This document shows positions 15,815 through 64,000 of a DNA stretch of 64,000 nucleotides, piece after piece. Within the stretch, counting starts at the first letter, position 1; every line of letters starts with the position of its first letter. The stretch lies in the NCBI RefSeq assembly GCF_963921235.1, contig NC_086108.1, positions 55,306,001 through 55,370,000 of the forward strand, given 5' to 3'. This DNA comes from Mobula hypostoma. Its lineage: Eukaryota. Below the pieces are notes generated by a model that saw only the letters and a program-made list of their open reading frames with translations, was not told where the DNA came from and ran no database searches. The position numbers were made by a program, and so were the translations under genes.

Positions 15815-18565
15815 TGTATTTGATATTTTAATAATATTTGAGTAATCATATATACTGTTTATTTGATTAAGCATGCTTGTTTTTAATTTATTGCAGGTTA
15901 TATGTATAAATATATTAATTGCATATGTCATCATGCTACTACGTGATATGTGCACACAACGTTTAAAGTAAACTGAAGTTAAACCCGTATTACTAGATTC
16001 CTGTACCTTCCTTTGAATTAATTTATCTTTTGAAATTACGAACACAAATGGTGACAAGGTATTTTTTAAAACAACCCCAAGAGAGATATTGCCCTCTTGA
16101 AGTGCAGTGAAGCATTTGAGTTCTTAAAAAAAAAGCAGTGAGGAATGGCAAGTGAAAATTGCAGCCCAGCACGTGTAGTGATGGTAGAGTGTTTTTTTTA
16201 AAAAAAGCATCACAGACTATGTTCTTTGAAAAGGAAGACATGATCGAGTATTAAAATAAATCGGAAAACATAAGAATTTATAGGTTTATAAAGAGTGAGT
16301 GCAGGGTGATAATCATAAAATCACAGCAGAATTGGCTGGCTATGCTTAAAAAAAGATGGGTTTCATTACACAAAAGATAACTTGATTTCATACACTGGGC
16401 AAATAGAACAGTATTATGAAGCAAATGAAATAGCCAATGCGAAACAAATACCAAATTTGTTAAGTGCATTGGGATTAAAGGCATACAGTTTGCCTAGAGA
16501 TTTAACTGCTCCAACCAAACAAGCAGAAATTAGGTTTGCTGATAATTGTCAAAGTAATTCAGGAGCATTTAGAGCCAAAGTCATTGTTGTTTGCAGAATG
16601 TGTTGGTTTTCGTAAGTGGAATCAAAAACAAAGGGGAGTTCATTTCAGCAAATGTGGCTGAATTAAAGATGTTGTCAGAGCATTGTCAGTTTGAAAATGG
16701 CCTTAATGGTGTACTGAGAGATTGTTTAGTTTCTTGAATCTCACAAGAAAGGATTCAAAACCGGCTTCTAACTGAAGCACAACTTGCATTTAAAAAAACA
16801 ATTGAAATTGCTGTTTCAATGAACCACAGACAGATGAAATTGAGATGCAGTCAGGAATTAAAGTGAGCATGAGTAAAATTGCAGTGTCTAAACAGAAACC
16901 AGCCTGGCTGAAGACATTGTTACCACTGTGGCAGGGGCTCACATACACCAAACAAATACTGGGTTAAGGGTGAAACTTGCAGGAAATGCAATAGAGTAGG
17001 CCACATACAAACAGAATGTCAGGCAGACAAAAGTAAGTGGACTGCACAGAGAAGAGAAAAATAAAGTCAAGTTTTGCAGTTTCAAAGAAGGCGCTAATCT
17101 GCACGCTGTTGATGAAAAATATAATAATGATGAGACAGACAAACGCCACTGTATATAACCTTGAGATTTGCAATGTGATAACTAACAATAGACCAGCAAT
17201 ATGGATTCTGCTGGAGATTGAATGACAAAGCCTCCTGGTTTGACTGTTTCAGTCATTCGAAAAAAAATGAGTTTGAACAGCATTTCAAAGATACCAAAAT
17301 GTAGCCTGTAGATTTCCAACCAAGAACCTGTACTGGAGAAGAAATAACTCCTTGGGATGACATTAGTAACAGTGAAATATAACAACCAACAAACAACATT
17401 GAGCGTTGTGGTAAAAACAGCATTGTGGGGGATAATAGGCTGAAATATCTACAACTTGATTGGAAATCCATCCATCATCTGTAAGCCACATCCTCTGCAA
17501 CAGTCAACTGAAAGTGAATTAAGAAAGATGCTGGATGATGCCACAACTGCCTCCATGCTGTACACCATGAACTGTTGCCCAACAGAGGATAAACAGGTGT
17601 TGATGCCAACCCCTGTGCCTCTGGTTTCGGAAAGCATATTGGACCAAGGAAGGATCTTGCTCAGAGGAATTGTGCAAGTAATGAAAGCAGTCATCAGAAA
17701 ACAACAGTTTTTGTAGGCAACATATCTGAAAAAGCTTCTGCTAGGTTAAGCCGGAGTTTACTTGCGAAATGTAACTTGGTTTTAAGCTGGAAGAGAGTTC
17801 AAGGAGTTTCAGGAAAGTTGCAAGCATTCGACTTTTGTGAGTATAAAGAACCAGAATCTATTCTGCGTGCATTAAGGTTATTGTATGCAAAGACCAAAGC
17901 CCAGCTGGATGAATGGCAGGCCAAAAAGAAAGTAGTCAATGGAAATAGGAAACAGAGGATTCATCAGATGATGTTGTGGATGTGGAAACCAAGAGGAGAG
18001 ATCAGATTGTAAAGGGAGCAATAGATGGACTAATAAGAGAATATTCCAGTGATCTAAATGCACCTTCCCAAGATCAAGATGCAGAAACTAGAAGAAGAGA
18101 AAGGAAAGTGAAGAAAGGTATCCTGAACTGTCAGAACCATTTCCTACTGTCTCAGAATGAACTCCTACAGCCACTATGGAGGACGCTGTAGAACCTGAGA
18201 TTGCTTCAGTCGCAAATCTCACCTGCCAAGCAATGACCTCCACCCCCTTGTCAGGAAAGACATTATCCCACAAGAGTAAGAAATCCTCCTCAACAATTAA
18301 TCTTTAGGCCTAAATGGGACAATCTAAAGTTTACTATACTGTGGACGTCTGTGTATAGTAGTTGTATTGTGTGTGTGTATTTACATTCATGTATTCTGTA
18401 CATGTAACATGCATATATTATATGTATAAAGAAGTAAATTGCATACTTCATCACACTGCCACGTGGTATGTGCATGCCTTGCTTAAAGTAAACATGAAAT
18501 TTGATCAACCTTCTCAGACTCCCTTCTCTTCCTTTGAATTAGTTTATGTTTTAAAGTTACAAAAT
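15815..18565 (+). mobile_element. Decayed Ty3/Gypsy LTR retrotransposon (two LTRs, PBS, gag and zinc knuckles, most of pol deleted)
   Basis: LTR-like repeats at about 15815-16046 and 18360-18565; PBS-like TGGTGACAAGG at 16049; gag ORF 16382..16615 (IEQYYEANEIAN..LLSALGLKAYSL..LTAPTK); CYHCGRGSH and CRKCNRVGHIQTEC knuckles at about 16920-17020. Confidence 0.85.
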
Positions 18566-18569
18566 CGTT

Positions 18570-18895
18570 GAAATTTTCTCTGCACTCGAGCATCTATCTT
18601 TCCTGTAGGTAGGTGACTAGAACTGAACAGAATTATCTAAATTTGGTCCTACCAATGTCTTCAAAACACTTTGCAATCAATGAACATTCCTGATGAAGGG
18701 TCTTGGCCTGAAATGTCAACTTCTTTAACTTTTACATAGATGCTGCCTGACCTGCTGAGTTCCTTCAGCATTTTGCGTGTGTTATTCCTGTACTCTGTGC
18801 CCTGATTTATGAAGACCAATATGCTAAATGCCGCCTTTACTACCCTATCTGTATTGTCATTTTCAAGGAATAACGGATCTGTATTTCCAGGACAT
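18570..18895 (-). mobile_element. CR1 fragment interrupted by a short Penelope terminal-repeat piece (18689-18784, +)
   Basis: Antisense CR1 RT C-terminal sequence flanks 'cctgatgaagggtcttggcctgaaatgtc..gatgctgcctgacctgctgagttc'. Confidence 0.7.
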
Positions 18896-19879: not shown

Positions 19880-22800
19880 CTTTTCTCCCCCCTTTTTGTA
19901 TTTGCAGTGTTTGTTGTTTGCACATTGGTTGTTGTCCATCCTTTCGGGTGTGGTCTTTCATTGGTTTTATTGTGCTTTTTGTAATTACTGTGATTGTCCG
20001 GAAGAAAATCAATCCCAGGATTGTATCTGGTGACATATACCATAGAAACTACAGCACAGAAACAGGCCTTTTGGCCCTTCTTGGCTGTGCCGAACCATTT
20101 TCTGCCTAGTCCCACTGACCTGCACACGGACCATATCCCTCCATACACCTCCCATCCATGTATCTGTCCAATTTATTCTTAAATGTTAATAAAGAACCCG
20201 CATTTACCACCTCGTCTGGCAGCTCATTCCATACTCCCACCACTCTCTGTGTGAAGAAGCCCCCCCAATGTTCCCTTTAAACTTTTCCCCCCTCACCCTA
20301 AACCCATGTCCTCTGGTTTCTTTCTCCCCTTGCCTCAGTGGAAAAAGCCTGCTTGCATTCACTCTATCTATACCCATCATAATTTTATATACCTCTATCA
20401 AATCTCCCCTCATTCTTCTACGCTCCAGGGAATAAAGTCCCAACCTATTCAACCTTTCTCTGTAACTGAGTTTCTCAAGTCCCGGCAACATCCTTGTAAA
20501 CCTTCTCTGCACTCTTTCAACCTTATTTATATCCTTCCTGTAATTTGGTAACCAAAAACTGAACACAATACTCCAGAGTCGACCTCACCAATGCCTTATA
20601 CAACCTCATCATAACATTACAGCTCTTATACTCAATACTTTGATTAATAAAGGTCAATGTACCAAAAGCTCTCTTTATGATCTAGTTACCTGTGACGCCA
20701 CTTTTAGGGAATTTTGTATCTGTATTCCCAGATCCCTCTGTTCCACTGCACTCCTCAGTGCCTTACCATTAACCCTGTATGTTCTACGTTGGTTTGTCCT
20801 TCCAACGTGCAATACCTCACACTTGTCTGTATTAAACTCCATCTGCCACTTTTTTAGCCCATTTTTCCAGCTGGTCCAAGTCCCTCTGCAGGCTCTGAAA
20901 ACCTTCCTCACTGTCTACTACACCTCCAATCTTTGTATCATCAGCAAACTTGCTGATCCAATTTACCACATTATCATCCAGATCATTGATATAGATGACA
21001 AATAACAATGGACCCAGCACTGATCCCCGTGGCACACCACTAGTCACAGGCCTCCACTCAGAGAAGCAATTCTCTACCACCACTCTTTGGCTTCTTCCAT
21101 CGAGCCAATGTCTAATCCAATTTACCACCTCTCCATGTATACCTAGCAACTGAATTTTCCTAACTAACCTCCCATGCGGGACCTTGTCAAAGGCCTTACT
21201 GAAGTTCATGTAGACAATATCCACTGCCTTCCCTTCATCCACTTTCCTGGTAACCTCCTCGAAAAACTCCAGTAGATTGGTCAAACATGACCTACCACCC
21301 ACAAAGCCATGTTGACTCTCCCTAATAAGTCCCAGTCTATCCAAATGCGTGTAGATTCTGTCTCTTAGTACTCCCTCCAATAACTTACCTACTACCGACG
21401 TTAAACTTACTGGCCTATAATTTCCCGGATTAATTTTCAATCCTTTTTTAAACAACGGAACAACATGATCCACTCTCTAATCCTCCGGCACCACACCTGT
21501 AGACAGCGACATTTTAAATATTTCTGCCAGGGCCCCTGCAATTTCAACACTAGTCTCCTTCAAGGTCCGAGGAAACACCCTGTCAGGTCCCAGGGATTTA
21601 TCCACTTTAATTTTCCTCGAAACAGCAAGGACCTCCTCCTTTTCGATATGTACAGTTTCCATGATCTCACTACTTGTTTCCCTTAATTCCATAGACTTCA
21701 TGCCAGTTTCCTTAGTAAACACAGACGCAAAAACCTGTTTAAGATCTCCCCCATTTCCTTTGGTTCTGCACATAGCCGACCACTCTGATCTTCAAGAGGA
21801 CCAATTTTATCCCTTACAATCCTTTTGCTCTTAATATACCTATAAAAGCTCTTTGGATTATCCTTCACTTTGACTGCCAAGGCAACCTCATGTCTTCTTT
21901 TAGCCCTCCTGATTTCTTTCTTAAGTATTTTCTTGTACTTCTTATACTCCTCAAGCACCTTATTTACTCCCTGCTTCCTATACACGTCATACAACTCTCG
22001 CTTCTTCTTTATCAGTATTGCAATATCCCTTGAGAACCAAGGTTCCTTATTCCTATTCACCTTGCCTTTAATCCTGACAGGAACATACAAATTCTGTACT
22101 CTCAAAATTTCTGCTTTGAAGGCTTCCCACCTACCGATCACATCCATGCCAGAAAACAACCTGTCCCAATCCATGCTTTTTAGATCCTTTCTCATTTCTT
22201 CAAATTTGGCCTTCTTCCAGTTAAGAACCTCAACCCTAGGACCAGATCTATCCTTGTCCATGATCAAGTTGAAACTAATGGTGTTATGATCACTGGAACC
22301 AAAGTGCTCCCCTACACAGACTTCTGTCACTTGTCCTAACTCATTTCCTAACAGGAGATCCAATATTGCATCCCCTCTAGTTGGTCCCTCTATATATTGG
22401 TTTAGAAAACTTTCCTGAACACATTTTACAAACTCTAAACCATCTAGACCCCTAACAGTATGGGAGACCCAATCAATATATGGAAAATTAAAATCCCCTA
22501 CCACCACAACTTTATGTTTCCTGCAGTTGCCTGCTATCTCTCTGCAGATTTGCACTTCCAATTCTCTTTGACTATTGGGTGGTCTGTAATACAATCCCAC
22601 TAATGTGGCCATACCTTTCCTGTTTCTCAGCTCCACCCACAAGGACTCAGTAGACAAGCCCTCTAATCTGTCCTGCCTGAGCACTGCTGTAATATCTTCC
22701 CTAACAAGCAATGCCACTCCCCCACCTTTCATTCCTCTGCCTCGATCACATCTGAAACATCGGAACCCTGGAATATTAAGCTGCCAGTCCTGCCCCTCCT

Positions 22801-23705
22801 GTAGCCAAGTTTCACTAATTGCTACAACGTCATAATTCCACGTGTCAATCCACACCCTCAACTCATCCGCCTTCCCCGCAATACTCCTTGCATTGAAATA
22901 TATACACCTCAGAAGATTTTTACCACCACCCACAACCTTTCTATTAGTGGATTTGCTTGAACTTTTAACATAATTTATTTTCACCCCAGCCACACTGTCA
23001 GCTCTGGTACTGTGGTTCCCATCCCCCTGCAAATCTAGTTTAAAGCCCCCCCCAATAGCATTAACAAACCTCCCTGAAAGGATATTGGTCCCCCTGTAGT
23101 TTGTGTAACCTGTCTCTCTTGTACAGGTCCCACCTGCCCCAGAAGAGGTCCCAATTATCCTGAAATCTGAAACCCTGCTCCCTACACCAGTTCCTCAGCC
23201 ACTTGTTCATCCTCCAGAGCATCCTATTCCTACCCTCACTGGCACCTAGCACAGGTAGCAATCCTGAGATTACCACCCTCGAGGTCCTGCTTTTCAACTT
23301 CCTACCAAGCTCTCTATACTCACTCTCCAGGACCTCCTCACTCTTCCTTGCTATGTCATTGGTACTGATGTGCACCATGACATCTGGCTGATCACCCTCC
23401 CACTTCAGAATGTCATGCAATCGATCAGAGACATCCTTGACCCTGGCACCTGGGAGGCAACAAACCATCCTGGATTCTCTGTCACGACCACAGAACCTCC
23501 TATCTGCACCTCTAACTATTGAGTCCCCTATCACTACCGCTCTCCTCTTTTTCCACCCTCCCTTCTGCACTGCAGAGCCAGACCCAGTGCCAGAGATCCG
23601 GCTACTGCAGCTTGTCCCAGGTAAGTCATCCCCCCCCCCCCAACAGTATCCAATGCAGTATACAGTATGTACTTTGATAATAAATTTACTTTGAACCTTA
23701 AGATA
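19880..23705 (+). mobile_element. Rex1/Babar 3' tail (19880-20040 and 23664-23705) split by a CR1 insertion
   Basis: 'gattgtatctggtgacatatac' rejoins 'tatgtactttgataataaatttactttgaac'; same tail is intact at about 53280-53340. Confidence 0.7.
20041..23663 (-). mobile_element. Near full-length young CR1/HER1 LINE (partial ORF1 esterase, ORF2 endonuclease and RT, 3' tail)
   Basis: ORF1 23061..23723 (VVIGDSIVRG..VHISTNDI); ORF2 in frameshifted pieces 21698..23032, 21477..21773, 20832..21473 (YRPVSLTS..KAFDKV..KFADDTK), 20675..20911, 20204..20566. Confidence 0.97.
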
Positions 23706-26257
23706 TGAAGAGTGTTTGTTCAAATGGTTACAAGGGCTGTTTCAAAGTTTTTGATTATGATGAAACTATGTAATAGTAAATTGTTATATATTGACCATCA
23801 TTCCTGATTTTTAAAAAAATCTTTTCTATTTACTGTGGTGACAAGGAATATTGTAATGTATACACAATGGAAGCTACTACTTTTGATCTTTAAATATTTG
23901 TCAAAAATCTAGCTGTTATTTCATCTATCACTGTGTGATTTGTTTCACTAATTTATGCCCCCTAAAGGCTTAAATTCTCCCTCATCAGAACTATCTCTGC
24001 TACCACCACGTACATGTTTAGTTTGCGAGGGATCAATTGGGCATGAAGAAAATATCTCTCCAGTTCGTTGCTTGATTTCTATATGCAGGTTTGAATCTCA
24101 CAGACTGACTCGACCATATAATCTATTTTAATCTCATGCCTGCCATCAGCTTGTGAAAGAAAGAAAGGAAATTCTCTGGAATATTAGAACATAGAAATTC
24201 CCCGAGAGCTAGTTTATCAGTGGAAACAGTGTGTGGGGGTGGGGGGGTGTTGGGGTGGGAGAGTCATTGTAACATTATGTAAAGAGAGATGCATTTCGGA
24301 CAGACTGCTGTCTCCTGTCCTCTCTATTGCTGTGCCGAGAAGTTAGTGAGGAGTTAGCTGCTAGCTCATGCTCCCACGGTTAAAATGATCTCATCACCAT
24401 GTGGTTCATTGTGGAGTGAAGCACAGAGGTAATGTGTGGAAGCTGTCTGGGAGATCTGATATTAATTAGGCAAATTAGGATGAGCAGTTTGGTGACTAAC
24501 CTGTGAAATCCAGTGCTCACAGCTGTGGCCTAGGTAGTTTACTGAGTGAGGGTGTTGCTCAGAATTAACAGCAGCTGCTCTATATGTTGCCCAGGTTCTA
24601 GAATTTCTCACACCTTTTTGGATGTGATGCCAAATACTCCTTTTTCTTTGGCTGCACAGTGCTCCCCAGCACACAAATGACTCTGTGAGAACCTTCTTAA
24701 AGGCAAGTAACCACTGGTAAACTTGTCCCCATGTAAAGGCAGTGCTGCGAAGGCCTACGATCATTTTGCCAGTCAGAAAGCATCTCTGAGCACCATGTAT
24801 TAGTGTTGAGCAGCTGTACCACTCACCCTAGCTTGCCCTCATGGGCAGCCTCTGCATATTGCCTGGGTGGTTCAGTGAGTCATGTATTGTTACATTTCAT
24901 GTATTGTTCCATTGCCTCTGGAGAGACAACAGAAGGCAAGGGTTAATATTACGTTCCAAGCACAGTAGCACACAGACCTAGCAGTTGTCTTTTTTTAAGT
25001 GTGGGGCTGTTTGCAATCCAGGACCCAACAGCACTGTAATAAATCAATGGCTTGTATGATTGTGCTACATGGGGAATCAGTGAATTTCTAATACCTTTCT
25101 TCTTATTTTATTTTCTGTTTTTTAGGTTTCAGTATCATATTTCATCAAATGTATCCCCAAACTCATGTTCATAACTAAACTGTAGTGATTCATCGAACAT
25201 TTATTCAAATAACATTTCAACATTACTCTTGACCTAAAGTTATTTGTTTGTTTAGTTTTTATCCCCTTGGCTGTCCTCGCTGGCTATATATTAAGCTGTC
25301 TTTTTCTACCATTTCTTCAAATTGTGAAAACTAACCAAAGAAGGAACATTATTTATCAAGTGTAAGTTTAAGTTTACACCACCAATTGAGTGATTGTGGG
25401 ATTAAGCCAAGTATAAATTGCTTTGAGAAATCATGTATATTTTCGTTTTTGAAATCTCAGCCAAAGTCAATCTACCCTTGAGTCTGGATGATACTATCAG
25501 CCAAAAAGGCTTTTAGGAAATTTTATTGGAAGACTTTAGGAGAGTAAGATTTTCTTCCTCTTTGCACTGGTAGTGCATCTTCAAAAGGGAGGTGCAATTA
25601 ACCCTTTCCAGACTCGCTTAGAGTAATCACATAATAAGGAGATGGGGCAGGGATATGATTTCATTGGTCATGGTCTTATTGAACGGTGAAGAAATTTGAA
25701 TGACTGAATAGCCAATTCTGCTTTTATTTCATGTTCCTTGTTCGAGTGGAATGATTCGTTTATACAACAACATAAAGCTTCTGGTTCATTTGTTCACTTA
25801 AATAAGATTTTTAATATTAAATTTGTAGTTTTAGCAATAAATTAGAGGCCTATAAAAGCACTGAATTTGGGTGGGGGGGGGTGGGGAGAAGAGCTACCAC
25901 TTCATCTTTTCAGAATCCTATTCCCTTAAACCATTCAGTAAGGTTGTGACTAAGAATGTATAGGCAACCTTTCTGTCTGATCCTCATATCCCTGAATTCC
26001 GTTGAGGAAATTTCTTTGAGTCTCATTTTATCGCAAGGTAATCAAATGAGTGACTGGATTCAGTGAGCACTCAGTCAATCTATTACATTCACATTTGTTG
26101 AACATGCAAAATAGAGGTGCGCATTTTTTAATGAATAATTCCTATATTAGTTTTATAAATTGTAGTGATAAATCAAGGCATCAGAAGGTTGCTATTTTGT
26201 TACCTGTCAGATGAAATTTTCATCTCCTCATGTTCAATTTTCTTATAAATTACACAC

Positions 26258-27549: not shown

Positions 27550-28615
27550 AAGATTCTGCAGGTGGTGGAAGTCCAGAGTAACACACACACAATGCTGGAG
27601 GAACTCAGCAGGTCAGGCAGCATCCATGGAAATGAAGAAACAGTTGATGTTTCGGGCTGAACCCCTTCGTCAGGACTGGAAAGGAAGGGAGACAAAGCAG
27701 AATAAGAAGGTGAGGGAAGGGGAAGAAGTACTGCTCCAAGGTGAAGCCAGGTGGATTGGGGAGGAAGGACAAACCTGGGAGATAATAGTGGAAAAGGTAA
27801 AGAGAAAGAAATTTGATGGGAGAGAAGAGTGGACCATGGGAGAAAGGGAAGGAGGAGGGCCCCCACGGGGATGTGATAGGTGAGGAGAGGAGGAGAAGAA
27901 GTAAGATGAGAGCCAGAGTGGGGAATGAAAGCAGAGGGAAAGGAAAGAAATTACCAGAAGTTGTAGAAATCAGTGTTCATGCTATCAGTTTGGAGGCTAA
28001 CCAACTGCAACGTGAGATGTTGCTCCTCCAACCTGAGGATGGCCTCCTCGTGACAGTAGAGGAAGCCATGGATCAATGTGTTGGACTGGGAACTGGAGTT
28101 AAAGTGGTTGGCCATTGGGAAATCCTGCTTGTTGTGGATGGAGCAAAGATGGTCGGCAAATTGGTCCCCCAATTTTTGGCGAGTCTCACTGTTGTAGAGG
28201 AGAATGCATCGGGACCACTGGCTATGACCCCCAGCAGGCTTGCAGGTGAAGAGTTCCCTCACATGGAAGGACTGTTTTGGGACCTGAATGGTGGTGAATG
28301 GGCAGGTGTGGCACTTCCGTTTGCAGGAATAAGTGCCAGGAGGGAGATTAGTGGGGAGGGACAAGTGGACAAGTGTCGGGAGCGATCCGCACAGAAAGCA
28401 GAGAGTGGGGGTGGGAGGTGAAGATGGCGGAAGTTGCAGCAAATGTGCTGGATTCAGAGGCTCCTGGGTGGTAGGTAAGAACAAGAGGAAGATGGTTAAG
28501 GTGGTGGGAAGATGGAGTGAGGGCAGATGTCCAGAAAATGGAGGATTTGCGACATTAATGGTGGAGGAAGGAAACCCTATTCCTTGAAAAAAGGGGACAT
28601 CTCTGATCTCTGACA
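27550..28615 (-). mobile_element. Penelope-like element (Neptune type): GIY-YIG endonuclease fragment and terminal repeat
   Basis: ORF 27951..28616 (PGTYSCKRKCHTCP..LYNSETRQKLGDQFADHL..ANHFNS..LRLEEQHL); hammerhead-bearing repeat 27550-27680. Confidence 0.9.
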
Positions 28616-31054: not shown

Positions 31055-31902
31055 TGTTTGATGATTCCCTTCGGAGCTGCACGTGAGTCATACTTATTGG
31101 CGCCACTTTGAACTTTTTGATCAATATTATGTGGAAAATACTCAGCTGGTAAGGCAGCATCTGTGAAAGAGAAAAAAGTTACTCTTTCAGATCCAAGAAC
31201 CTTTTGGTAAAACTGAGGAAATGGAAAACAAATCAGTTTGTTGCAGAGTTGCTGAAGGAGAAATTGTGGAACAAAGTGAATCATTTTCTGTTAGGGTGAG
31301 GCCACATGAAGTGTTAATTATTGCTAACAGCAAGGCTGTATGGCATTGCCATGTGCAGTTTCATGAGACTGACATTATGTTTTAGGGCTTGCTGTTGCTG
31401 CAATTAAAGTTTTTGCTACCCCTAGTCCAGCTCTAAAAATCCTTTATTTTTGAACATGAATCAAGGATAGATTGCTTTTGTGGTAATATCTGTGGAATGA
31501 GTGTGAGACTTGGCTAAGAATATATGACAGAGTAAAATTCTGGGGTTGTGGTGGCGCACAGCATCAAGAATGCCTTACCTGATGTTCACTGGTTATGGAG
31601 CTAAATGGAAGATGCTCTCAGTGTGAAAACTGGGCATTGCCTTCGTCAAAATTGCATGGAAGTCACTGTTCTTAAAGATGAAAGATCCTGGCATAGGTCG
31701 GCTGTGTTGATCAGGTTAACTGGGACTTAACAGTGTTGTTTCTCTAACCACCATGTGCTACGTGCCTGATCTAACAGTTGTGTTATATGGATCTTGGGGA
31801 GGTTGTTTAGTATCGGTGCTATTGATCCTCCGATGGTAATGGACATTGACGTCCCTTAACTGGTCTATATCTTGCTACGTCAAACTAGACAGGACTGAGA
31901 TA

Positions 31903-32899
31903 ACAACACACATAAAAGTTGCTGGTGAATGCAGCAGGCCAGGCAGCATCTCTAGGAAGAGGTACAGTCGACGTTTCGGGCCAAGACCCTTCGTCAGGAC
32001 TAACTGAAAGAAGAGCTAGTAAGAGATTTGGGAGGGGGAGGGGGAGATCCAAAATGATAGGAGAAGACAGGAGGGGGAGGGATGGAGCCAAGAGCTGGAC
32101 AGTTGATTGGCAAAAGGGATGTGAGAGGATCATGGGATGGGAGGCCTAGGGAGAAAGAAAGGGGGAGGGGTGAAGTCCAGAGGATGGGCAAGGAGTATAG
32201 TGAGAGGCCTTCTGTATATTGGTGAGACCCGGTGCAGAGTGGAAGACCGTTTCGCTGAACACCTATACTCTGTCCGCCAGAGAAAGCAAAATCTCCCAGT
32301 GGCCACACATTTTAATTCCACGTCCCATTCCCATTCTGATTTGTCTATCCACGGCCTCCTCTACTGTAAAGATGAAGCCACACTCAGGTTGGAGGAACAA
32401 CACCTTATATTCCGTCTGGGTAGCCTCCAACCTGATGGTATGAACATTGACTTCTCTAACTTCCATTAATGCCCTCCTCCCCCTCGTACCGCAATTGTTA
32501 TTTATTTACTATTATATTTGTATATTCTTTTTCTCTCTCTCGCCTTTTTCTCCCTCTGTCCATTTTGCTCTACTCCTTGCCCATCCTCTGGGTTTTTCCT
32601 CCGCTCCCCCTTTCTTTCTCCCTTGGACTCCTGTCCCATGATCCTCTCATATCCCTTTTGCCAATCAACTGTCCAGCTCTTGGCTCCATCCCTCCCCCTT
32701 CTGTCTTCTCCTATCATTTTGGATCTCCCCCTCCCTCTCCTACTTTCAAATCTCTTACTATTTCTTCTTTCAGTTAGTCCTGATAAAGGGTCTTGGTCTG
32801 AAACGTCTTCCTAGAGATGCTGCCTGGCCTGCTGCATTCACCAGCAACTTTTATGTGTGTTGCTTGAAATTCCAGCATCTGCAGATTTCCTCGTGTTTG
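31903..32899 (+). mobile_element. Young 5'-truncated Penelope-like element with inverted terminal repeat
   Basis: GIY-YIG half in ORF 32137..32469 (LYIGETRCRVEDRFAEHL..QPDGMNIDF); inverted arms of about 300 bp; 12-bp TSD aggactgagata at 31891-31902 and 32900-32911. Confidence 0.95.
31965..32002 (-). ncRNA. Minimal type I hammerhead ribozyme motif (intact core)
   Basis: UAGUC-CUGACGA-A-GGGU(CUUG)GCCC-GAA-ACGU-C-GACUG: helix I, core, helix II, palindromic helix III. Confidence 0.85.
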
Positions 32900-33821
32900 A
32901 GGACTGAGATAGAACAGCAACTAGTAGTCTGCTGGAGGATTCCTTGTGTTTAAGTTTAATGTGTTGAGGTTTCCCACCGTTCTGTCTCCTGGCTGACGGA
33001 GATGGAACTTACATCTTCTTATAACACATGAAGAGCTTGGAAGATTGAGTGAAAGGTACTATATTCTGAGTAAGACTCTGTATGGTTTTTGAGTAGTCTA
33101 CAAGACAGCTCTTGTACTTATACCATATCCTTTGTTTAGTTTTGAATTTGATCCTTGGGTTTATGCCAGATGTCTTGTTAAAGTGTTATTTTCATATTTT
33201 TGTAGTGTCTTAATACAGCTGAATGGCATTTCAGAGTAGACATTTGTCTGGGTATAAAATCAAAACCTGACCCAACACATGAGCTTAGGGACTGGTAGGT
33301 GTTTTGACGCCGAAGCTCAAAGATGATTCTAAATACTATCATGGGGTTTTATTTTTAATGAAAAGATTTGTTTATGAAACCAATGCCCTAAGTTAACCTT
33401 ACACACTTCTAAGCTGTCATCTCTACTTTTAAGGTTTGGTGACCTAATTTTGACTTTAGATTTTTATCAGACTAGCAAAGTTGCTGCTTAAATTGTTAGA
33501 TCAGAGTCTAGGCAAAGACCAAGATAACGAGAAAGAGTAGCAGCCTCATTAGCTGCTTGCTGCTCTCAAGAGGCTGAAAGCAGTGTGCTTGTGAAGGATA
33601 AGCTTAAATAAAATGTTCGAATGATAGCATCCTGGGTGGTTCAATATGTTGCAGTAGTTGGAGATATTTGTAACCTATCAAAACAAGGCCTGATGCCTCG
33701 GGTCTCAACTTTCTCATCTTGATCTGCCAGAAATGTTATTGGGATTTCACAAATGGTAACCCTAATGCATCAGTCAAGTAATTTATCAAAATATAAAAAC
33801 TTTGCTTTCAAAGTCAATTTG

Positions 33822-34599: not shown

Positions 34600-35945
34600 A
34601 ACTGTCAGAAATGCTGACGTTTAGTTTGAGAAATTCCCTGGATCGATAGGATTTATACCAACCTGCTGAGGGAGGCAAAGAAGGAGATTGCTGTGGCTCT
34701 GAGACTCATGAGTTTTCATTGGCTGCAAATAAGGTACAGGATTACTGGAGGACGGCAAAATGGTTCACACTTTTTCAAGAAACCCAGCAGGGATTGCTGT
34801 GGTCCTGCAAGGCTAACATCAGTAGTAGGGAATTGCTGTATGCATGTGTTTTGACATAGAGTATTAATGATCAGATAGAAAAGCAGGGACTAATCAGAGG
34901 TAGGTCCTGTATGACAACTTAAACTGAATTCCTTGAATTTGTGATGGTGTATCAATGCAAACAAGGCAGTAAATTGTGATTTACATGGTAAAGTCTATTG
35001 AAGACCCATACATAGAGATTGCTTTAAAAGGTTAGAACCCACAAAAGAAGTTGACCAACAGGATCCAAAACTGGCTTGGCAAAAGGAGAAGGAAACTGAT
35101 ATTTGAACATTGTCTTTGGTAGCAGAGTCTGAGAAACAGAGTGGCCTCAGTACAAGTCCATAGATCCTTAATGATGGCAATGCAGGTAGACAACTTGGTT
35201 AGGAAGGCATATTAGGATACTGGCCTTGAAACACACACAAAATGCTGGAGGAACTCAGCAGGTCAGGCAGCACCGATGGAAAGGAGTACAGTTGACGTTT
35301 CAGGTCGAGACCCTTCAGCAGGACGGCATTAGTCGGGACAGTAAATGAGAAGCGGGGAAGTTATGTTCCAACTTGAGGGAAAAGACCTTGGTTGGACTTC
35401 AGTTAGTACTGTGTGCCAATTTGTCACCAAAATATAAGGATGTGATGGTGCTAGACAGGGTGCAGAGAGGATTCACCAGGATGTCATCTGGGGATGGAGT
35501 AGTTCAGTTATAAAGAGAGGCTGAAGAAGCTTAGTCTCTTTACCCTGCAGCAGAGGATAATAAAAGGGACCATGATTGAGGTATATAAAATTGCGGTGTA
35601 TACTGTAGGTAAGATAGAAAGCATAGAATTAGGGTAAGGGAGAAGAGATTGAGAGAGGGTATGAGTGGGGCCCCACCTTCACCCAGTAAGTAGTTAAAAC
35701 TGGATCACTGACAGCGTGTGAAGTATTATCCAGATCAGGGGTTCCCAACCTCGGTTCCACAGACCCCTCGGTTAATGATAGAGGTCCATGGCACGATAAA
35801 GGTTGGGAACCAAAGATCTAGATGGACACTTGAATTATTGGGACATAGAGGGCTCTGGGCCAAGTGTTGGATGATGGGGTAAATGCAGGTTGGCATAGAT
35901 GAGTTGGAGAAAATGGCCTGTTTTCATGCAGCGTGATTCTTTGAG
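34600..35945 (+). mobile_element. Heavily decayed CR1 carrying a Penelope terminal-repeat insertion (35228-35326, -) and an hAT MITE
   Basis: 'gggtgcagagaggattcaccaggatg' (VQRGFTRM), 'catgattgaggtatataaaatt'; inserts visible. Confidence 0.75.
35736..35815. mobile_element. 80-bp hAT MITE
   Basis: CAGGGGTTCCCAACC...GGTTGGGAACC; 8-bp TSD atccagat/atctagat. Confidence 0.85.
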
Positions 35946-47585: not shown

Positions 47586-48813
47586 GTAAATTCAGATATT
47601 TGCTATCTAGTGTTATAGAGAGATGCTAATGATTCAATAATTGACAGGGCAAATTTATACCAGCTGTGCTATTTTATTTTTAGGATTTTGGAGTGTCTAT
47701 GAAAATTGTTCCACATCAGTATAATGTTCTACTCTCCAATTCCCACCAATGAAGTGAAGACCAATACTTATCACTATTCACTCTTTAAATACCCAATTTA
47801 ATTATAATTTTCCAATGCATTGCCTTTGTTTTGAAATGTAGACTAGTAATGCTTTTGCTTATTGCATGCGAATTAGTTCTTTGCTGTTGCACTTACTTTC
47901 ACTATTTTAATACATCTGTATCTGCACCTGAACTGGAGGGAGGTGGGGCTTGTCTCCATGTGGGAAGGTTTGCTTGTGCTGCACGGGGGCTTTAAATTGG
48001 AGTTGCAGAGTGAAGGGAGCCAAAGTGCCAGAGCAGATAGTGGAGTGGATGGGAAATGTGTTGCTAAGCCTACATGTGAATTTATGATTTGAAAGATTGA
48101 GCATGGTAGGACTGAATTTCACAGTTGTGTATATTTCAATGCCAGGAGTATTGTTGGAAATGCAGATCAGCTTAGGACATGGATCAGCACGTGGAATTAT
48201 GACATTGTAGACATTAGTGAGACTTGGCTGCAGAAGGGACAGGACTGGCAGCTCAGCATTCCCGGGTTCTGTTGTTTTAGACATGATAGAGCAGGGGAGA
48301 ATAAAGGGGAAAGGATGACATTACTAGTCAGGGAAAATATCATAACACTACTCAGATAGGACAGGTTGGAGAGTTCATGTGCTGAGGCTGTATGGGTGGA
48401 ACTGAGGAATAAGGAAAGGATGACCATATCAATAGAATTCTATTATAGACCATCCAACAGTCCATGGGATTTAGAGGAGCAAATTTGTAGCCAGATTGCA
48501 GACTGTTTCAGAAAACATAAGGTTGTGATAATAGCTGATTTTTAACTTTCTACCTATTGACTGGAACTCCCACTCTGTGAAAGGACAGGATAGGACAGAG
48601 TTCATTACATGTGTTCAGGAAAGTTTCCTTCATCAGTACATAGAGGTCCCAACTAGGGGGCATGTGATACTAGATCTCCTGTACCCAGGGCTGACATGCT
48701 GTTACTTGGACCCTGTGGGAGGCAAGTTCAGAAATTGCAGGAACCCTGCAGAGACATTTAGAACATCCCTAGTCACTGGTGAGGTGAGAGAAGATTGGAG
48801 GACACCTAATGTT

Positions 48814-49733
48814 GTCCCGAATAACTATTCTTGGGCTTCCAGCTGGGTACAGGTATTGAGTTTAAACGAAGTTTCGATGACAACCTCTGCCATCTTCATC
48901 AGGGCTGATGCCTGGGTATGTCTAATCTGGTGGTATTTATACCCCTGTAGTCCATCCCCTCACTTGGTTAGTCCTGATCCAATCAGGTTTCTGCTGTCCC
49001 ACCTTGTTTACAATCGAATTCCAGTTCTTGCTTGGAGTGAGACCTTCATTTTTGTGAAAATTCTTATCCTCTAGTTTTATTTCAATGGCTTCCTTCACCA
49101 GGTGGTCCCAAAAACCATTGGCGCAGCACATTAGTTTTTTTGCTGTTGAGGTCAATCCCATGACCATTGCGAATTCAATGTTTTGCTACCTCCAATTTCT
49201 CCGGGTAACCCAAAACGGATACACTTCCTGTGATCCTTGATGCAGGTTTCCACCGTCTGTCCCATCTGTCTGTTGATACACTGCTCCACATTCACAGGGA
49301 ATCCTGTAAATAGCAACATCCTGATTCCCAGGTCATCTTTGACCTACATAAGCTGTGATTTGAGTTTCCTTAAGGGTTTATGGGTGGTATTCATCCAGTA
49401 TTTCTTCAGAATCCTGGTGATCCTTCCAAAAACCATGGAAATGTCGGGGAAGACAAGCAGTATCAACAGGTTCTTCCTAATTGTTAAGTTTCCTGGTTTT
49501 TCCATCAGACCTTTTAAGAACCCATTTGATTTTCTTCACCTTGTTGTCATTCTGATTGGACAAGGACTAACCAATCAGGAGCAATGAACAACAGGGTATA
49601 AATACCACCAGACTAGATGTGTCCAGGCATCATTCCTGATGAAGATGCAGTTTGTCATCGAAATGTCGGTTGAAATCGATACCTGTACCCAGCTGGAAGC
49701 CCAAGAAGAGTATATGCTGTGAAAGCACTAGAT
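48814..49733 (-). mobile_element. Second Penelope-like family (Penelope/Poseidon type) with inverted terminal repeat
   Basis: ORF 48937..49167 (LVKEAIEIKLEDKNFHKNEG); inverted arms about 48825-48990 and 49550-49712; duplicated cctaatgtt at 48805-48813 and 49734-49742. Confidence 0.88.
49631..49672 (+). ncRNA. Hammerhead ribozyme motif, family 2 (partner copy at 48863-48907, -)
   Basis: CAUUC-CUGAUGA-A-GAUG..CAUC-GAA-AUGU-C-GGUUG; the minus copy has a 7-bp helix II GAUGGCA/UGUCAUC. Confidence 0.7.
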
Positions 49734-55524: not shown

Positions 55525-57035
55525 TTCCTTTCCAATCCCGATGAAGGGTCTCTGCCTGAAATTTTGACTGTTTATTCATTTCAATAGATGTTGCCTGACC
55601 TGCTGAGTTCCTCCAGCATTTTGTGTGTACGTGTGTTGCTTTGGATTTCCAGCATTTGCAGACTTTCTCGTGTTTATTCTTTCTAAGTTGTTGGCAGTTT
55701 TATTTTTGCTTTTCAGGTTCTAGTGACGGAATTTTGAAGATAGCTCATGTTATTCCTGGTGTCTTTATAATTGAACTTCATCCATTATAATATGTTACCT
55801 ACCACTACCAACCCCATCTCTATGATGAGCATAAAAGGTTTTCCAGATATTTTGGAAATCTTGAGCAGTGCAAACAAAATGCTGGATGATATCAGTAAGG
55901 CAAGCAGCATCTATGGAGAGGAATAAACAGCAAACATACAAAATGCTGGAGGAACCCAGCAGGACAGACAGCGCCTATGGAAAAGAGTACAGTCGATGTT
56001 TCGGGCCGTGATCCTTCAGCAGGACAGGAGAAAAAGAAGATGAGGAGTCAGAGTTAGAGGGTGGGGGGAGGGAAGAGATAACTACAAAGTAGTAGGTGAA
56101 ACTGGGAGGGAGGAAGTAAAGAGTTGGGAAGTTGATTGGTGAAAGAGATACAGGGCTGGAGAGGGGGGAATCTAATAGATGACAGAAGGCTACGGGAGAA
56201 AGAAAAGAGGGAGGAGCACCAGGGAGAGATGGTGGGCAGACAAGGAGATAAGGTAAAAGGGGGAAAAGGGGATGGAAATGATGGGGGGGGGGGGAGGATG
56301 TTCGAGAAATCAATGTTCATGCCATCCAGTTGGAGGCTAACCAGACAGAATATAAGGTGTTGCTCTCTCCAACCTGAGTGAGGCCTCATTGTGATAGTAG
56401 AGGAGGCCATAAACTGACTTGTTGGAATGGGAAGTGGAAATAAAGTAGGTGGCCACTGAGGAATCCAGCTTTTTCTGGTGGATGGCACGTAGGTAATTGG
56501 TGAAGCAGTTTCCCAGTCTACATTGGGTCTCACCAATACACAGAAGGCAGCACTGGATACAGTAGATGACTCCAACAGGACTCATGGGTGAAGTGTCAAC
56601 TCACCTGGAAGGACTATCTGGGGCCCTGAATGGTAGTGAGGGAGGAGGTGTAGGGGCAGGTGTGGCACTTGTTCTGCTTGCAAGGCTAAGTACCGAGAGG
56701 GAGATCAGTGGAGGGGGTGAATGGACAAGGGAGCTGCGTAGGGAGCGATCCCTGCGGAAAGCAGAAAGTGGTGGGGAGGGAAAGATCTGGTTGATGGTGG
56801 TATTCTGCTGGAGATGGCCAAAGTTTTAGAGAATTATGTGTTGGACCACAGTTGATGTCTTGGCCAGGACTAGAAAGGAAGGAGGTAGAAGTCGGAATAA
56901 AGTGGCGAGGAGAGAGAATGAGTACATGCTGGAAGGTGATAGGTTGGGGGGAAGGTGGGTGGGGAAGTAGAATGAAATAAGAAGCTGTAAGGAGATGGGT
57001 GGAAAAAGTAATGGGCTGAAGGTGAAGGAATATGA
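55525..57035 (-). mobile_element. Penelope-like (Neptune) GIY-YIG fragment and terminal repeats; a + strand terminal-repeat piece lies at 55525-55675
   Basis: ORFs 56337..56585 (GVIYCIQC..CIGETQCRLGNCF) and 56054..56575 (EQHLIFCLVSLQLDGMNIDF). Confidence 0.88.
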
Positions 57036-58769: not shown

Positions 58770-60395
58770 CCCCCTCCCCATCCCTGCATCCAGCTCTAAT
58801 CCCTGCTGGCTTCTCCATCCCCCCTGACTTTCTCCTCTCTGAGATGGAAAGTTCTGTCCTCAGCAAGGGCCTTTGCCTGCACTTCAATGAGTTCCTCATC
58901 CACCATGATACTGAGCTCCTTGTCTGTTGCCCTAGCTCACTTCTTTGGCAAGAATTCCCCACCCTGCATTGATAATCTCTTTACCCATCTCAAAGTCTCC
59001 TCCTCTTCTGCTCTGGACTTCTTTTTATCTCTGTTGTTGATGAGATATCAACCAGCTTGACTTTAGCACTCCTCTCTTCTCAAAAATTAATCTCTCTGAA
59101 CACTTCCCTTCACCCTCTCCACACCAACCTTACCATCATTATCAAACCCGCAGACAAAGCGTGTGCTGTTGTAGTGTGATAGACTGACCTCTACCTTGCT
59201 AAGTGCAGGCAACAACTCTCAGACAGCTCCTCTTGTCCCTTGAAGAGGACCCTGGACCTCACTCAAGACCATCAGAAAATTGTCTCCAACTCCGTTGCCA
59301 AGCTCATAGCTGGAGACTGTCCATCCACGTCCACCAAGCTCATAGCTACCTTACCCAACACTGCTCGTTCCTACCTCCTACCGAAGATCCACAAATCAGA
59401 CTGTCTGGGTAGGGCCACCGTTTCTGCCTGCACCAGTCCCAAATGAACTTCTGTCCATATACTTTGATTCCATTTTATCTCCCTTGGTTCAGTCCCTTCC
59501 GACCTACATGCGTGACACTTCACATGCTCTCATTTCCTCAAAAACTTTGAATTCCTGGGCCCTAATTGACTCATTGTCACCATGGATGTCCAGCTCCAAT
59601 ACTCTTCTTTCTCCCCCATCAAGAAGGCCTTAAAGCTCCCTGCTTCTTTCTCGACAACAGACCCGACCAATTCCCTTCTACCACCACCACCCTCCAGCTG
59701 GTGGAACTGGTCTGCACCCTCAACAATTTTTCCTTTGGCTCCTCCACTTTCTCCAAACTTAAGGTCTAGCAATGGGCACTCACTTGACCCCCAGCTATGC
59801 CTGCTTTTTCATTGATCCAATGTAGATTGGGGGCAGTTTTGTTGAGCACCTTTGCTCCATCTGCAAAAAGTGGAATTTCTTGGTGCCCAATCATTTCAAA
59901 TCCTATCTCCTTTCCCTTTCTGGGGTGTTGGTCCATGTGCCATGATGAAGCAATTGGGGGTTGAAGGAGAAACACCTCATGTCTAGTCTCGGTAGCATTC
60001 GACCTGATGGCATGAACATTGATTTCTCCTTCCAGTAATTCCCACCCTCCCCTTTGCAGTTTTTCTGTTCTCTTGCTCTGGCCTCTCACCTCTTCTCCTC
60101 AACTGTCCATAACCTCCCTCTGGTGTCCTACCTCCTTTTTCTGACAAGATCCACTCTTCTCTCCTATCTGATTCCTTCTTCTCCAGCCCTTTAGCTTTTC
60201 CACTTATCACCTACCAGTTTCTTATTTAATCCCCCATTCACCTGGCTTCACTTGTCACTTTCTAGGTTGTCCTCCTTCCCCTCCCCCGACCACCTTATTC
60301 TAGCTCCTTTCCCCTTCCCTTGTCATCCTGATGAAGGGTCGACTATTCATTCGTTTTCATAAATGCTGAATTCTGCCAGCATTTTGTGTGTGTTG
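58770..60395 (+). mobile_element. Decayed Penelope-like (Neptune) element: RT, GIY-YIG remnant and terminal repeat
   Basis: LSEMESSVLSKGL, IIIKPADK..AVVV, ORF 59240..59446 (TARSYLLPKIHK), 59566..59769 (ELVCTLNNFSF). Confidence 0.9.
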
Positions 60396-61597: not shown

Positions 61598-64000
61598 TGA
61601 GAAAATCTGCAGATGCTGGAAATCCAAATCAACACACACTAAATGCTGGAGAAACTCAGCAGGTCATGCAGAATCTATGGAAAAGAGTAAACAGTCAATG
61701 TTTCGGGCTGAGACCCTACTTCAGGACTGGAAAGGAAGGGGAAAAATAAGTAAGAAGGTGGGAGAGGGGAAAAAGAAGAACAAGGTGGCTGGTGGTGGGT
61801 GAGACATGGAGGGGGGAGGGGGCAAAGTAAAGAGTAGCATTACCAGAAGTTCAAGAAACAGGACTGGTGAAAGTCAAGGGGGGAGCATTACGGTAGGCTT
61901 ATTCAGAAAGTCAGAATGCATGGGATGCAGGGAAGTTTAGCCAAGTGGATTCAGAATTGGCTTGCCGGCAGAAAGCAGAGGGTCGTGGTGGAGGGAGTAC
62001 TTTCAGATTGGAGGGTTGTGACTAGTTGTGACCAGAACCACAAGCATTGGTTCTATTACCTCTACTTTTCGTGATTTTTATTAACGAGCTGGATGTGGGG
62101 GTAGAAGGGTGGGTTGGCAAGTTTGCAGATGACACAAAGGTTGGTGGTGTTATGGATAGTGTAGAGGATTGTCAAAGATTGCAGAGAGACATTGATAGGA
62201 TGCAGAAGTGGGCTGAGAAGTGGTGGATGGATTTCAACCCGGAGAAGTGTGAGGTGGTACACTTTGGAAGGACAAACTCCAAGGCAGAGTACAGAGTAAA
62301 TGGCAGGATACTTGGTAGTGTGGAGGAGCAGAGGAATCTGGGGGTACATGTCCACAGATCCCTGAAAGTTGCCTCACAGGCAGATAGGGTAGTTAAGAAA
62401 GCTTATGGGGTGTTACCATTCATAAGTTGAGGGACAGAGTTTAAGAGTCGCGAGGTAATGATGCAGCTCTATGAAACTCTGGTTAGGCCACACTTGGAGT
62501 ATTGTGTCCAATTCTGGGCGCCTCACTATAGGAAGGGTGTGGAAGCATTGGAAAGGGTACAGAGGAGATTTACCAGGATGCTGCCTGGTTTAGAGAGTAT
62601 GCATTGCAATCAGAGATTAAGGGAGCTAGGGCTTTACTCTTTGGAGAGGAGGAGGATGAGAGGAGACATGATAGAGGTATACAAGATATTAAGAGGAATA
62701 GATAGTGGACAGCCAGCGCCTCTTCCCCAGGGCACCACTGCTCAGTACAAGAGGACATGTCTTTAAGATAAGGGGTGGGATGTTCAAGGGGGATATTAGA
62801 GGAAGGTTTTTTACTCAGAGTGGTTGGTGCGTGGAATGCACTGCCTGAGTCAGTGGAGGCAGATACACTAGTGAAATTTAAGAGACTACTAGACAGGTAT
62901 ATGGAGGAATTTAAGGTGGGGGGGGGGTTATATGGGAGGTAGGGTTTAAGGGTTGGCACAACATTGTGGGCTGAAGGGCCTGTAATGTGCTGTACTATTC
63001 TATGTTCTATTACCAGAAATTTGAGAAATCAGTATTCATGCCTTCAGGTTGCAGGCTAACCAGACAGAATACAAAGTATTGCTCCTCCAACCTGAGTGTA
63101 GCCTCATCCTTGGAGTAGGCCATGGAATGACATGTTGGAATGTGAATGGGAAGTGGAATTGAAATTGATGGCCACTGAGTAAAGGTGTTTGGCACAGTGT
63201 CCCAATCTACGTCAGGTATACAGGAGGCCACACCGGGAGCACCGGATACAGTAGATGACCGCAACAGACTCTCAGGTGAAGTGTCACCTCATCTGATGGT
63301 TGAGGAAGGGAATCTACTTTCTTTGAAGAAGGAGAATATCTCAGTTGTTCTGGAATGAAAAGCTTTGTCCTGAGAGCAGATGTAGAGAGGGAGGAACTGA
63401 GAGAAGGAAATGGCATTTTTACAAGTGACAGGGATGGGAGAGGTATAGTTCAGACAGTTGTGAGAGTCAGTGGATTTATAAAAGATGTTAATAGATAGAG
63501 TGTCTCTAGAGGTGTATACGGAGAGTTTGGGAAAGGGGATACAGTTGTTGGAAATGGATCAAGAAATTTGAGGGTAGGGTGGAAGCTGTAGGCAAAGTTG
63601 ATGAAATTGATGAGCTCAGCATGGGTGCATGAAGCAGCAGCAATGCCATCATCGACGTAGCATAGGAAGAGTTGGGGAGAGATGCCGGTGAAGGCTTGGA
63701 TCATGGACTGTTCCACGTAGCCGACAAAAAAGCAGGCATAGCTGCGACCCCTGCAAGTGCCCAGGTCTACACCTTTGGTTTGAAGGAAGTGAGAGGAGCT
63801 GAAAGAGAAATTATTGAGGATCAGTTCCACCAGAAGGAGGAGAAAGGTGGTAGACAGAAACTTAATTGGGTCTGTTGTCCAAAAAGTGGAGAGCTTTAAG
63901 GCCTTCTTGATGGGGGATGGAGGTGTATAGAGACTAACTATCCATAGTGAAAAAGAGAGGACTGGGGCCAGGGAACTTAATCAGTGAAAAGATCAAAACT
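61598..64000 (-). mobile_element. Penelope-like (Neptune) element interrupted by a CR1; runs off the window end
   Basis: RT ORF 63450..63830 (NNFSF..FLQTKGV..LFLCYVDD); 63010..63264 (LRLEEQYFVFCLVSLQPEGMN); terminal repeat 61598-61890. Confidence 0.9.
61891..63008 (+). mobile_element. Young 5'-truncated CR1/HER1 LINE
   Basis: ORFs 62047..62430 (KFADDTK) and 62458..62766 (LVRPHLEYCVQFW); tail 'ttctatgttctat'. Confidence 0.95.

Follow-up and report, generated by a model that had tools for sequence, protein, structure and literature searches.

A Neptune-type Penelope-like element hammerhead motif in a very high-copy repeat family of the ray Mobula hypostoma

Minimal hammerheads in the pseudo-LTRs (pLTRs) of metazoan Penelope-like elements (PLEs), including the fish Xena, Poseidon and Neptune elements, were described in 2014 (PMC4209133). 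Cervera and de la Peña (2014) already reported solo copies and opposite-strand pairs, and the metazoan PLE hammerheads studied there cleave weakly, as dimers (PMC4209133). The hammerhead of the anole Poseidon element cleaves only with the element's protein, and mutants of this ribozyme still insert in vitro (PMC11167929). The function of PLE hammerheads has been called unclear (PMC8557442). The vertebrate PLEs sampled by Li et al. (2026) are Neptune or Poseidon elements, and the same work reports hammerhead retrozymes in one cartilaginous fish (10.64898/2026.07.22.740005). No shark or ray name appears among the files of the PMC4209133 supplement that were searched. A search mainly of the open literature found no published description of the ray family treated here, a lineage that Lünse et al. 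may list, and no published peak of 5' ends at helix I.

An intact motif of this kind lies on the minus strand at 31965..32002 of the window, by which the whole 64-kb stretch of DNA that was analysed is meant. The minimal PLE hammerhead is a kind known since 2014, and the ray family joins it. We read the motif as the pseudo-LTR hammerhead of a Neptune-type PLE, in a probably inert, truncated insertion that was probably reverse-transcribed from uncut RNA; the probability of this reading is put at about 0.88. The motif itself is ordinary. The parts worth pursuing are a peak of 5' ends at its front edge and a lineage with a changed core (A6C). Tens of thousands of near-identical insertions are available for reading in this genome. 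Copies run through the cut site and halt at the front edge of the motif, and the A6C lineage was amplified as well. Should transcription start at the front edge, the PLE RNA would have fixed ends, and the formation of pseudo-LTRs could be tested directly.

The intact motif and the insertion that carries it

Reading the minus strand of 31965-32002 gave the same letters as the initial annotation. In 5' to 3' order these are the helix I 5' strand UAGUC (31998-32002), the core box CUGACGA (31991-31997), an extra A (31990), helix II with GGGU (31986-31989) and GCCC (31978-31981) closing the loop CUUG, then GAA (31975-31977), the palindrome ACGU (31971-31974), C17 (31970) and the helix I 3' strand GACUG (31965-31969). 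Helix I has 5 bp and helix II has 4 bp, three of them G-C and one U.G, and the ACGU palindrome stands as helix III. The predicted cut is between 31970 and 31969. A strict descriptor requiring the core boxes, a helix II of at least 3 bp, the palindrome, UH and a helix I of at least 4 bp matched once in the window, at this motif, and in 0 of 100 shuffles. An Rfam scan gave no hammerhead match at 31965-32002 at E values up to 5. The descriptor, together with a match to the published consensus (PMC4209133, supplement Fig S3), bears out the minimal type I architecture that had been proposed.

The comparison with the published minimal hammerheads is close (PMC4209133). The ray motifs have in common with them the CUGANGA box followed by an extra nucleotide, the pair G10.1-C11.1, and GAAA-C-G-U-C with a palindromic 15.2-16.2, as well as a short helix I, a U-rich 5' flank, a location in the pLTR and a population of mostly solo or opposite-strand copies. 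The boxes CUGANGA and GAAA...UH are present in the 31965 copy and are the majority letters in 202 genome copies, 94% of which have the extra A between A9 and 10.1; a pyrimidine tract lies 5' of the motif. Two features differ from the published set. One is the shortness of helix II in the ray (4 bp). The other is the pair 10.1-11.1, which is G-C in the window copy but G.U in most of the youngest copies (38 of 57).

The motif sits in a 997-nt insertion (31903-32899) between 12-bp target-site duplications (31891..31902 and 32900..32911, plus strand). The insertion consists of two 5'-truncated PLE arms in opposite orientation. The inverted arm (31903..32207, minus strand), 86% identical to the tandem unit L047, holds the pyrimidine-rich 3' UTR, the intact hammerhead and about 65 nt downstream of it, without the optional tail. 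The direct arm (32206..32899, plus strand; 84% identical to L047) holds the end of the endonuclease, the 3' UTR, a broken hammerhead and a tail of about 37 nt. Its endonuclease piece (32206..32469, plus strand) is the C-terminal part of a GIY-YIG domain, beginning shortly ahead of the YIGET motif and ending with the stop codon; the Pfam GIY-YIG match (E 0.008) falls short of the curated cut-off. The broken hammerhead, with approximate boundaries 32773..32804 on the plus strand, reads CUGAUAA in the core, and 11 nt are deleted from it across the cut site and the 3' strand of helix I.

The repeat family and its parent element

The initial annotation had named eight further sites in the window as variants of the motif. 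All are copies of the same repeat, and none passes the strict descriptor. Apart from the broken hammerhead of the direct arm, they comprise an older solo copy at 18683..18783 (plus), with the core kept, the palindrome lost and 2 of 5 helix I pairs left; an older copy at 27579..27684 (minus), with the core kept and the palindrome lost, behind a decayed fragment of the reverse transcriptase (RT) end and endonuclease (27957-28603); an older solo copy with the CUGCUGA (A6C) core at 35230..35329 (minus); an older copy at 55528..55628 (plus) whose core is broken to CCGAUGA; a second older CUGCUGA (A6C) copy at 55934..56031 (minus), behind an endonuclease fragment (56296-56847); an internally deleted copy at 60325..60395 (plus) with the 5' half of the core only; and an older copy at 61630..61735 (minus) with the core broken to CUGAAGU. 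Beyond that list are a very decayed partial copy at 31137..31203 (minus), a partial tandem copy of the region downstream of the hammerhead at 55870..55935 (minus), and a decayed RT-to-endonuclease fragment of an older PLE subfamily at 63016..63991 (minus). The window also contains several decayed LINE-type copies (20204-23741, 47907-50666, 13017-13637 and 62032-62766). Their translations read as RT and AP endonuclease, and one copy has an esterase-like ORF1. An ORF at 17593-18012 (plus) resembles a fragment of an RNA-binding (RRM) protein and is possibly, on our assumption, a processed pseudogene of RBM25.

Copy number was estimated from 160 stretches of 10 kb (1.6 Mb), taken from large contigs at round coordinates. 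In this sample a profile search gave 357 repeat matches, with 0 in the reversed control, which extrapolates to about 780,000 genome-wide (bootstrap 680,000-880,000); 202 of the 357 cover the whole motif. Strict motifs number 31 in the 1.6 Mb (1 and 1 in the controls), or about 67,000 genome-wide. Searched for as an exact 35-place pattern, the intact motif is matched 44,267 times in the genome and 0 times in the control. A very high copy number had been proposed from the window, and these counts confirm it. Since only 31 strict motifs stand against 357 repeat matches in the sample, most copies are decayed relics. The 44,267 exact motifs exceed the published figures of about 9,000 for Xenopus tropicalis and about 4,000 for the coelacanth, obtained by different search methods (PMC4209133).

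The parent element was found by using the RT fragment of the window as a genome query, which gave 47,816 candidates; 150 were scored and 20 with long open frames were read. These 20 show RT, a CX4CxxC linker and YIGET. RT and, at the C terminus, a GIY-YIG domain are encoded in one ORF. It has about 1,015 codons and is interrupted by frameshifts in the copies that were read, with domain scores (RVT_1 E 3e-4, GIY-YIG E 0.01) that are both below the curated cut-offs. Three of the 20 candidates are tandems with units of 3505-3523 nt, in which the stop codon lies about 295 nt before the next C3 and the ATG of the next ORF is at +166 nt from C3. In the 1.6-Mb sample the repeat is found within 520 nt downstream of 57 of 63 endonuclease C-termini, and endonuclease sequence is found upstream of just 65 of the 357 repeat matches. 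The RT/GIY-YIG ORF, the tandem units and the position of the repeat downstream of endonuclease ends establish the PLE origin that had been suspected.

The linker reads CKRNKCYTC in L047, and a CX2-5CxxC linker is present in 101 of 106 homologs bearing YIG[EQK]T, in agreement with the earlier assignment to a Neptune type. The Neptune clade as described (PMC8557442) likewise has one ORF with RT, a CX2-5CxxC linker and, C-terminally, a GIY-YIG domain, and likewise forms partial tandems, inverted 5'-truncated copies and an optional tail of 30-40 nt. These traits of endonuclease-bearing PLEs, and target duplications, are all present in the ray family. Nematis elements have the same linker and structure (PMC8557442), and Neptune-type is meant here in the sense of the linker. 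Among named proteins the closest come from rays (77-94% identity) and from sharks (56-71%). The gene models P0002 and P0004, named as kinase-domain and chitinase-domain isoforms, consist largely of the RT and endonuclease of this element, an exonisation or an annotation artefact.

The anole Poseidon element PAc, of the Penelope/Poseidon clade, offers a second comparison (PMC11167929). It shares with the ray element a tail defined by two internal 3' end points, an uncut motif in the insertions and a hammerhead at the junction of pLTR and ORF. The PAc ORF, however, starts inside the hammerhead, whereas the ray ATG lies 166 nt downstream of C3. An ATG-less open frame of about 64 codons (SPDEGSRPETST...; L047:1990-2190) passes through the hammerhead in each of the three tandem units that were read.

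Possible ribozyme capacity of the motif

Ribozyme activity of the ray motif is plausible by analogy, because the motif fits the consensus, its subfamily changes are tolerated and PLE hammerheads elsewhere are weak or aided by protein. Among 208 clustered copies the subfamilies vary at N7, in loop II and at H17, and two pairs have turned to G.U; these changes preserve the fold. Covariation in helices I and II has been reported across families of minimal PLE hammerheads and would be a supporting trait. In the ray family the helices are conserved, and the changes that keep pairing are one-sided; no two-sided compensatory change was found among the subfamilies of these 208 closely related copies, in which there is little divergence. 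A T-to-A change in the 3' strand of helix I (L047:2046) makes up 79% of the depth in run X17 and 48% in run X18, contigs of two other organisms whose RNA origin is guessed, with no partner change among those listed.

Individual inserted copies decay neutrally. In young copies the core was changed at 6 of 490 positions and the downstream region at 47 of 2069 (p 0.16), and in old copies at 168 of 1414 and 768 of 6148 (p 0.56). Selection on individual inserted copies was therefore rejected, as the core decays like downstream positions.

An older lineage has the core CUGCUGA (A6C). It accounts for 27 of 219 copies, none of them young and 8 with endonuclease upstream, and the change is linked to a downstream letter (p 4e-4). 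A9C occurs in 17 of 219 copies, and A-to-C changes occur in 2-4 copies at each of six other A positions. The youngest subfamily keeps the canonical core, with A6 in 56 of 57 copies. Natural hammerheads with the same A6C core retain cleavage, which improves with Mn2+ (Naghdi et al. 2020, PMC7151607). Those described are Bcep176 and a mutated mouse-gut type II hammerhead; in the ray it is an older subfamily that carries the change.

Folding predictions favour an inactive structure. The lowest predicted energy (-12.9 kcal/mol) belongs to a rod that spans -5..+32 and in which the core is paired, with a z of -2.0 and with 6 of 200 shuffles equally good. The hammerhead scaffold has -8.9 kcal/mol and a probability of 0.07%, in a folding model that cannot score the catalytic core, and the best predicted dimer is a plain duplex (-35.9 vs -16.7).

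The motif might then be dead as a ribozyme in the ray lineage and be retained as a promoter or protein-binding signal, its hammerhead look being inherited. The amplified A6C lineage, the A9C copies, the favoured inactive fold and the absence of covariation point this way, as does the stretch of 60 nt downstream of the motif, which is about equally conserved between subfamilies. Against this stand the canonical core of the youngest subfamily, the natural C6 hammerheads that cut, and the tolerated changes at N7, loop II and H17, which are positions free in hammerheads. A dead ribozyme is accordingly doubtful, though a serious candidate. The odds are slightly better than even that, in an active master element, slow cutting by the motif processes the transcript. 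The motif would cut as a dimer through ACGU and with help from the protein, and insertion would not depend on this cutting.

Ends of the insertions and the route of copying

The ends of the insertions were mapped in the genome sample, in which 75 young copies were found, or 72 after 3 at stretch edges were removed. The 3' ends of young copies cluster at about +95 and about +130 from C3. At the other end, 16 of the 47 young copies that reach the front edge of the motif stop at -8..+1. In a second young set, taken from the first places listed, 6 of 20 stop at -8..+1 and 7 more at -23..-12. The pooled count at -8..+1 is 22 of 67, where 3.2 are expected from the downstream rate (p 3e-13). Of the older copies with identity of at least 85% (134 of 243), 38 of 78 stop in the same interval, with less exact alignments. 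The peak is common to both 3'-end classes (9 short and 7 long copies) and is therefore set by position, not by length; a length-dependent stop was rejected on this ground.

The cut site (+28) has no excess of 5' ends (3 of 81 copies, 3.1 expected). Of 72,844 matches, the 100 listed all continue across it, and nearly every inserted copy examined retains the uncut junction. One solo copy flanked by target duplications, L247, begins at the cut site; as a general mode, starting there was rejected, the stops being at background level. A 5'-end peak without an excess at the cut site, and the amplified A6C lineage, suggest copying from uncut RNA. If the anole element is a guide, RT would prime internally at the two 3' sites and copy through the intact motif.

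The chances are about even that the 5' pile-up marks the 5' terminus of the element's RNA. The start would then be a YYAGTC sequence whose AGTC forms the 5' strand of helix I. We take YYAGTC at the pile-up to resemble an initiator. If the RNA starts at helix I, priming close to the start yields mini-copies of 100-135 nt. Mini-copies of about 100 or 135 nt flanked by target duplications, and fold-backs of about 230 nt, do arise at the 5' pile-up (e.g. L047:2011-2150); where a copy stands solo, 0-7 nt separate its target duplication from the -4 A. Transcription of D. virilis Penelope begins 46 nt ahead of an intron whose end is at helix I (PMC2377424, PMC4209133).

The letters before the -4 A show no excess of G (47 G and 53 A in a hand count), and a cap-derived extra G at -5 is unsupported by this count. 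Six of 7 solo copies with extra letters end in G, a small set that had been pre-selected for purines. The lack of a G excess before the -4 A and the broader peak of the second sample, with its 7 stops at -23..-12, argue against one capped start. A non-T letter stands at -5 in 2,912 matches across the genome; of the 100 listed, only 8 continue as template (hand count). Thirty copies were selected by their purine at -5, and of these 24 share a flanking word of at least 10 nt and 18 are fold-backs.

Alternatively, the pile-up could be no RNA start but an RT stop or a fold-back, brought about by the hairpin of the motif itself or by a bound protein. The motif folds as a single rod over exactly -5..+32, head-to-head fold-backs make up 34 of the 72 young copies, palindromes of this sort have been taken as self-priming (Arkhipova 2013, PMC3846280), and the broad peak of the second sample would fit. 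RT, however, reaches the rod at +32, where 5' ends show no excess, and the hairpin in the cDNA is weak (-2.8 kcal/mol). A snap-back at helix I has 67 matches genome-wide against 2,912 for the comparable pattern with a non-T at -5, and as a main route it was rejected as rare; of the 17 copies that stop in -14..+1, only 6 are inverted. A stop of this kind is thus possible, with the odds against it.

Splicing, in which the pyrimidine tract and AG before helix I serve as a 3' splice site and spliced RNA is copied, would agree with the YAG-ended tract adjoining helix I and with the D. virilis intron (PMC4209133, PMC2377424), but it is quite unlikely given that no common upstream exon occurs among 100 listed of 1,466 or 100 of 2,912 matches and that the target duplication of solo copies lies so near the -4 A. 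Least probable is a self-propagating non-autonomous family (retrozyme or SINE) arising from ribozyme-cut circles: the scarcity of upstream endonuclease and the target duplications of mini-copies speak for it, but there are no short tandem arrays, the 5' junctions vary, the starts are not at the cut site and the subfamily letters are common to short and long copies. The non-LTR retrozymes of Li et al. (2026), whose type I hammerhead also derives from PLE pLTRs, form short tandem arrays with a hammerhead in each repeat, unlike the ray copies (10.64898/2026.07.22.740005). The latter are dispersed solo or head-to-head truncations, or 3.5-kb coding tandems.

Returning to an RNA that starts at helix I, a more speculative and rather improbable extension is that this RNA is terminally redundant and that RT priming 95-130 nt in produces a cDNA resembling a strong-stop product. 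Such a cDNA would either insert as a mini-copy or jump to the ribozyme-trimmed 3' repeat, and a retrovirus-like strand transfer would build the pLTRs. Inverted pLTRs, palindromic junctions and initiator-like motifs have been reported in PLEs (Arkhipova 2013, PMC3846280). If this were true, the cDNA intermediate would have left its record in the genome as some 780,000 relics.

Downstream of the hammerhead, at about +63..+80 from C3 in L047, two arms UGCUG and CAGCA are conserved across subfamilies while the loop between them varies. They form a possible recognition hairpin close to the first 3' end point.
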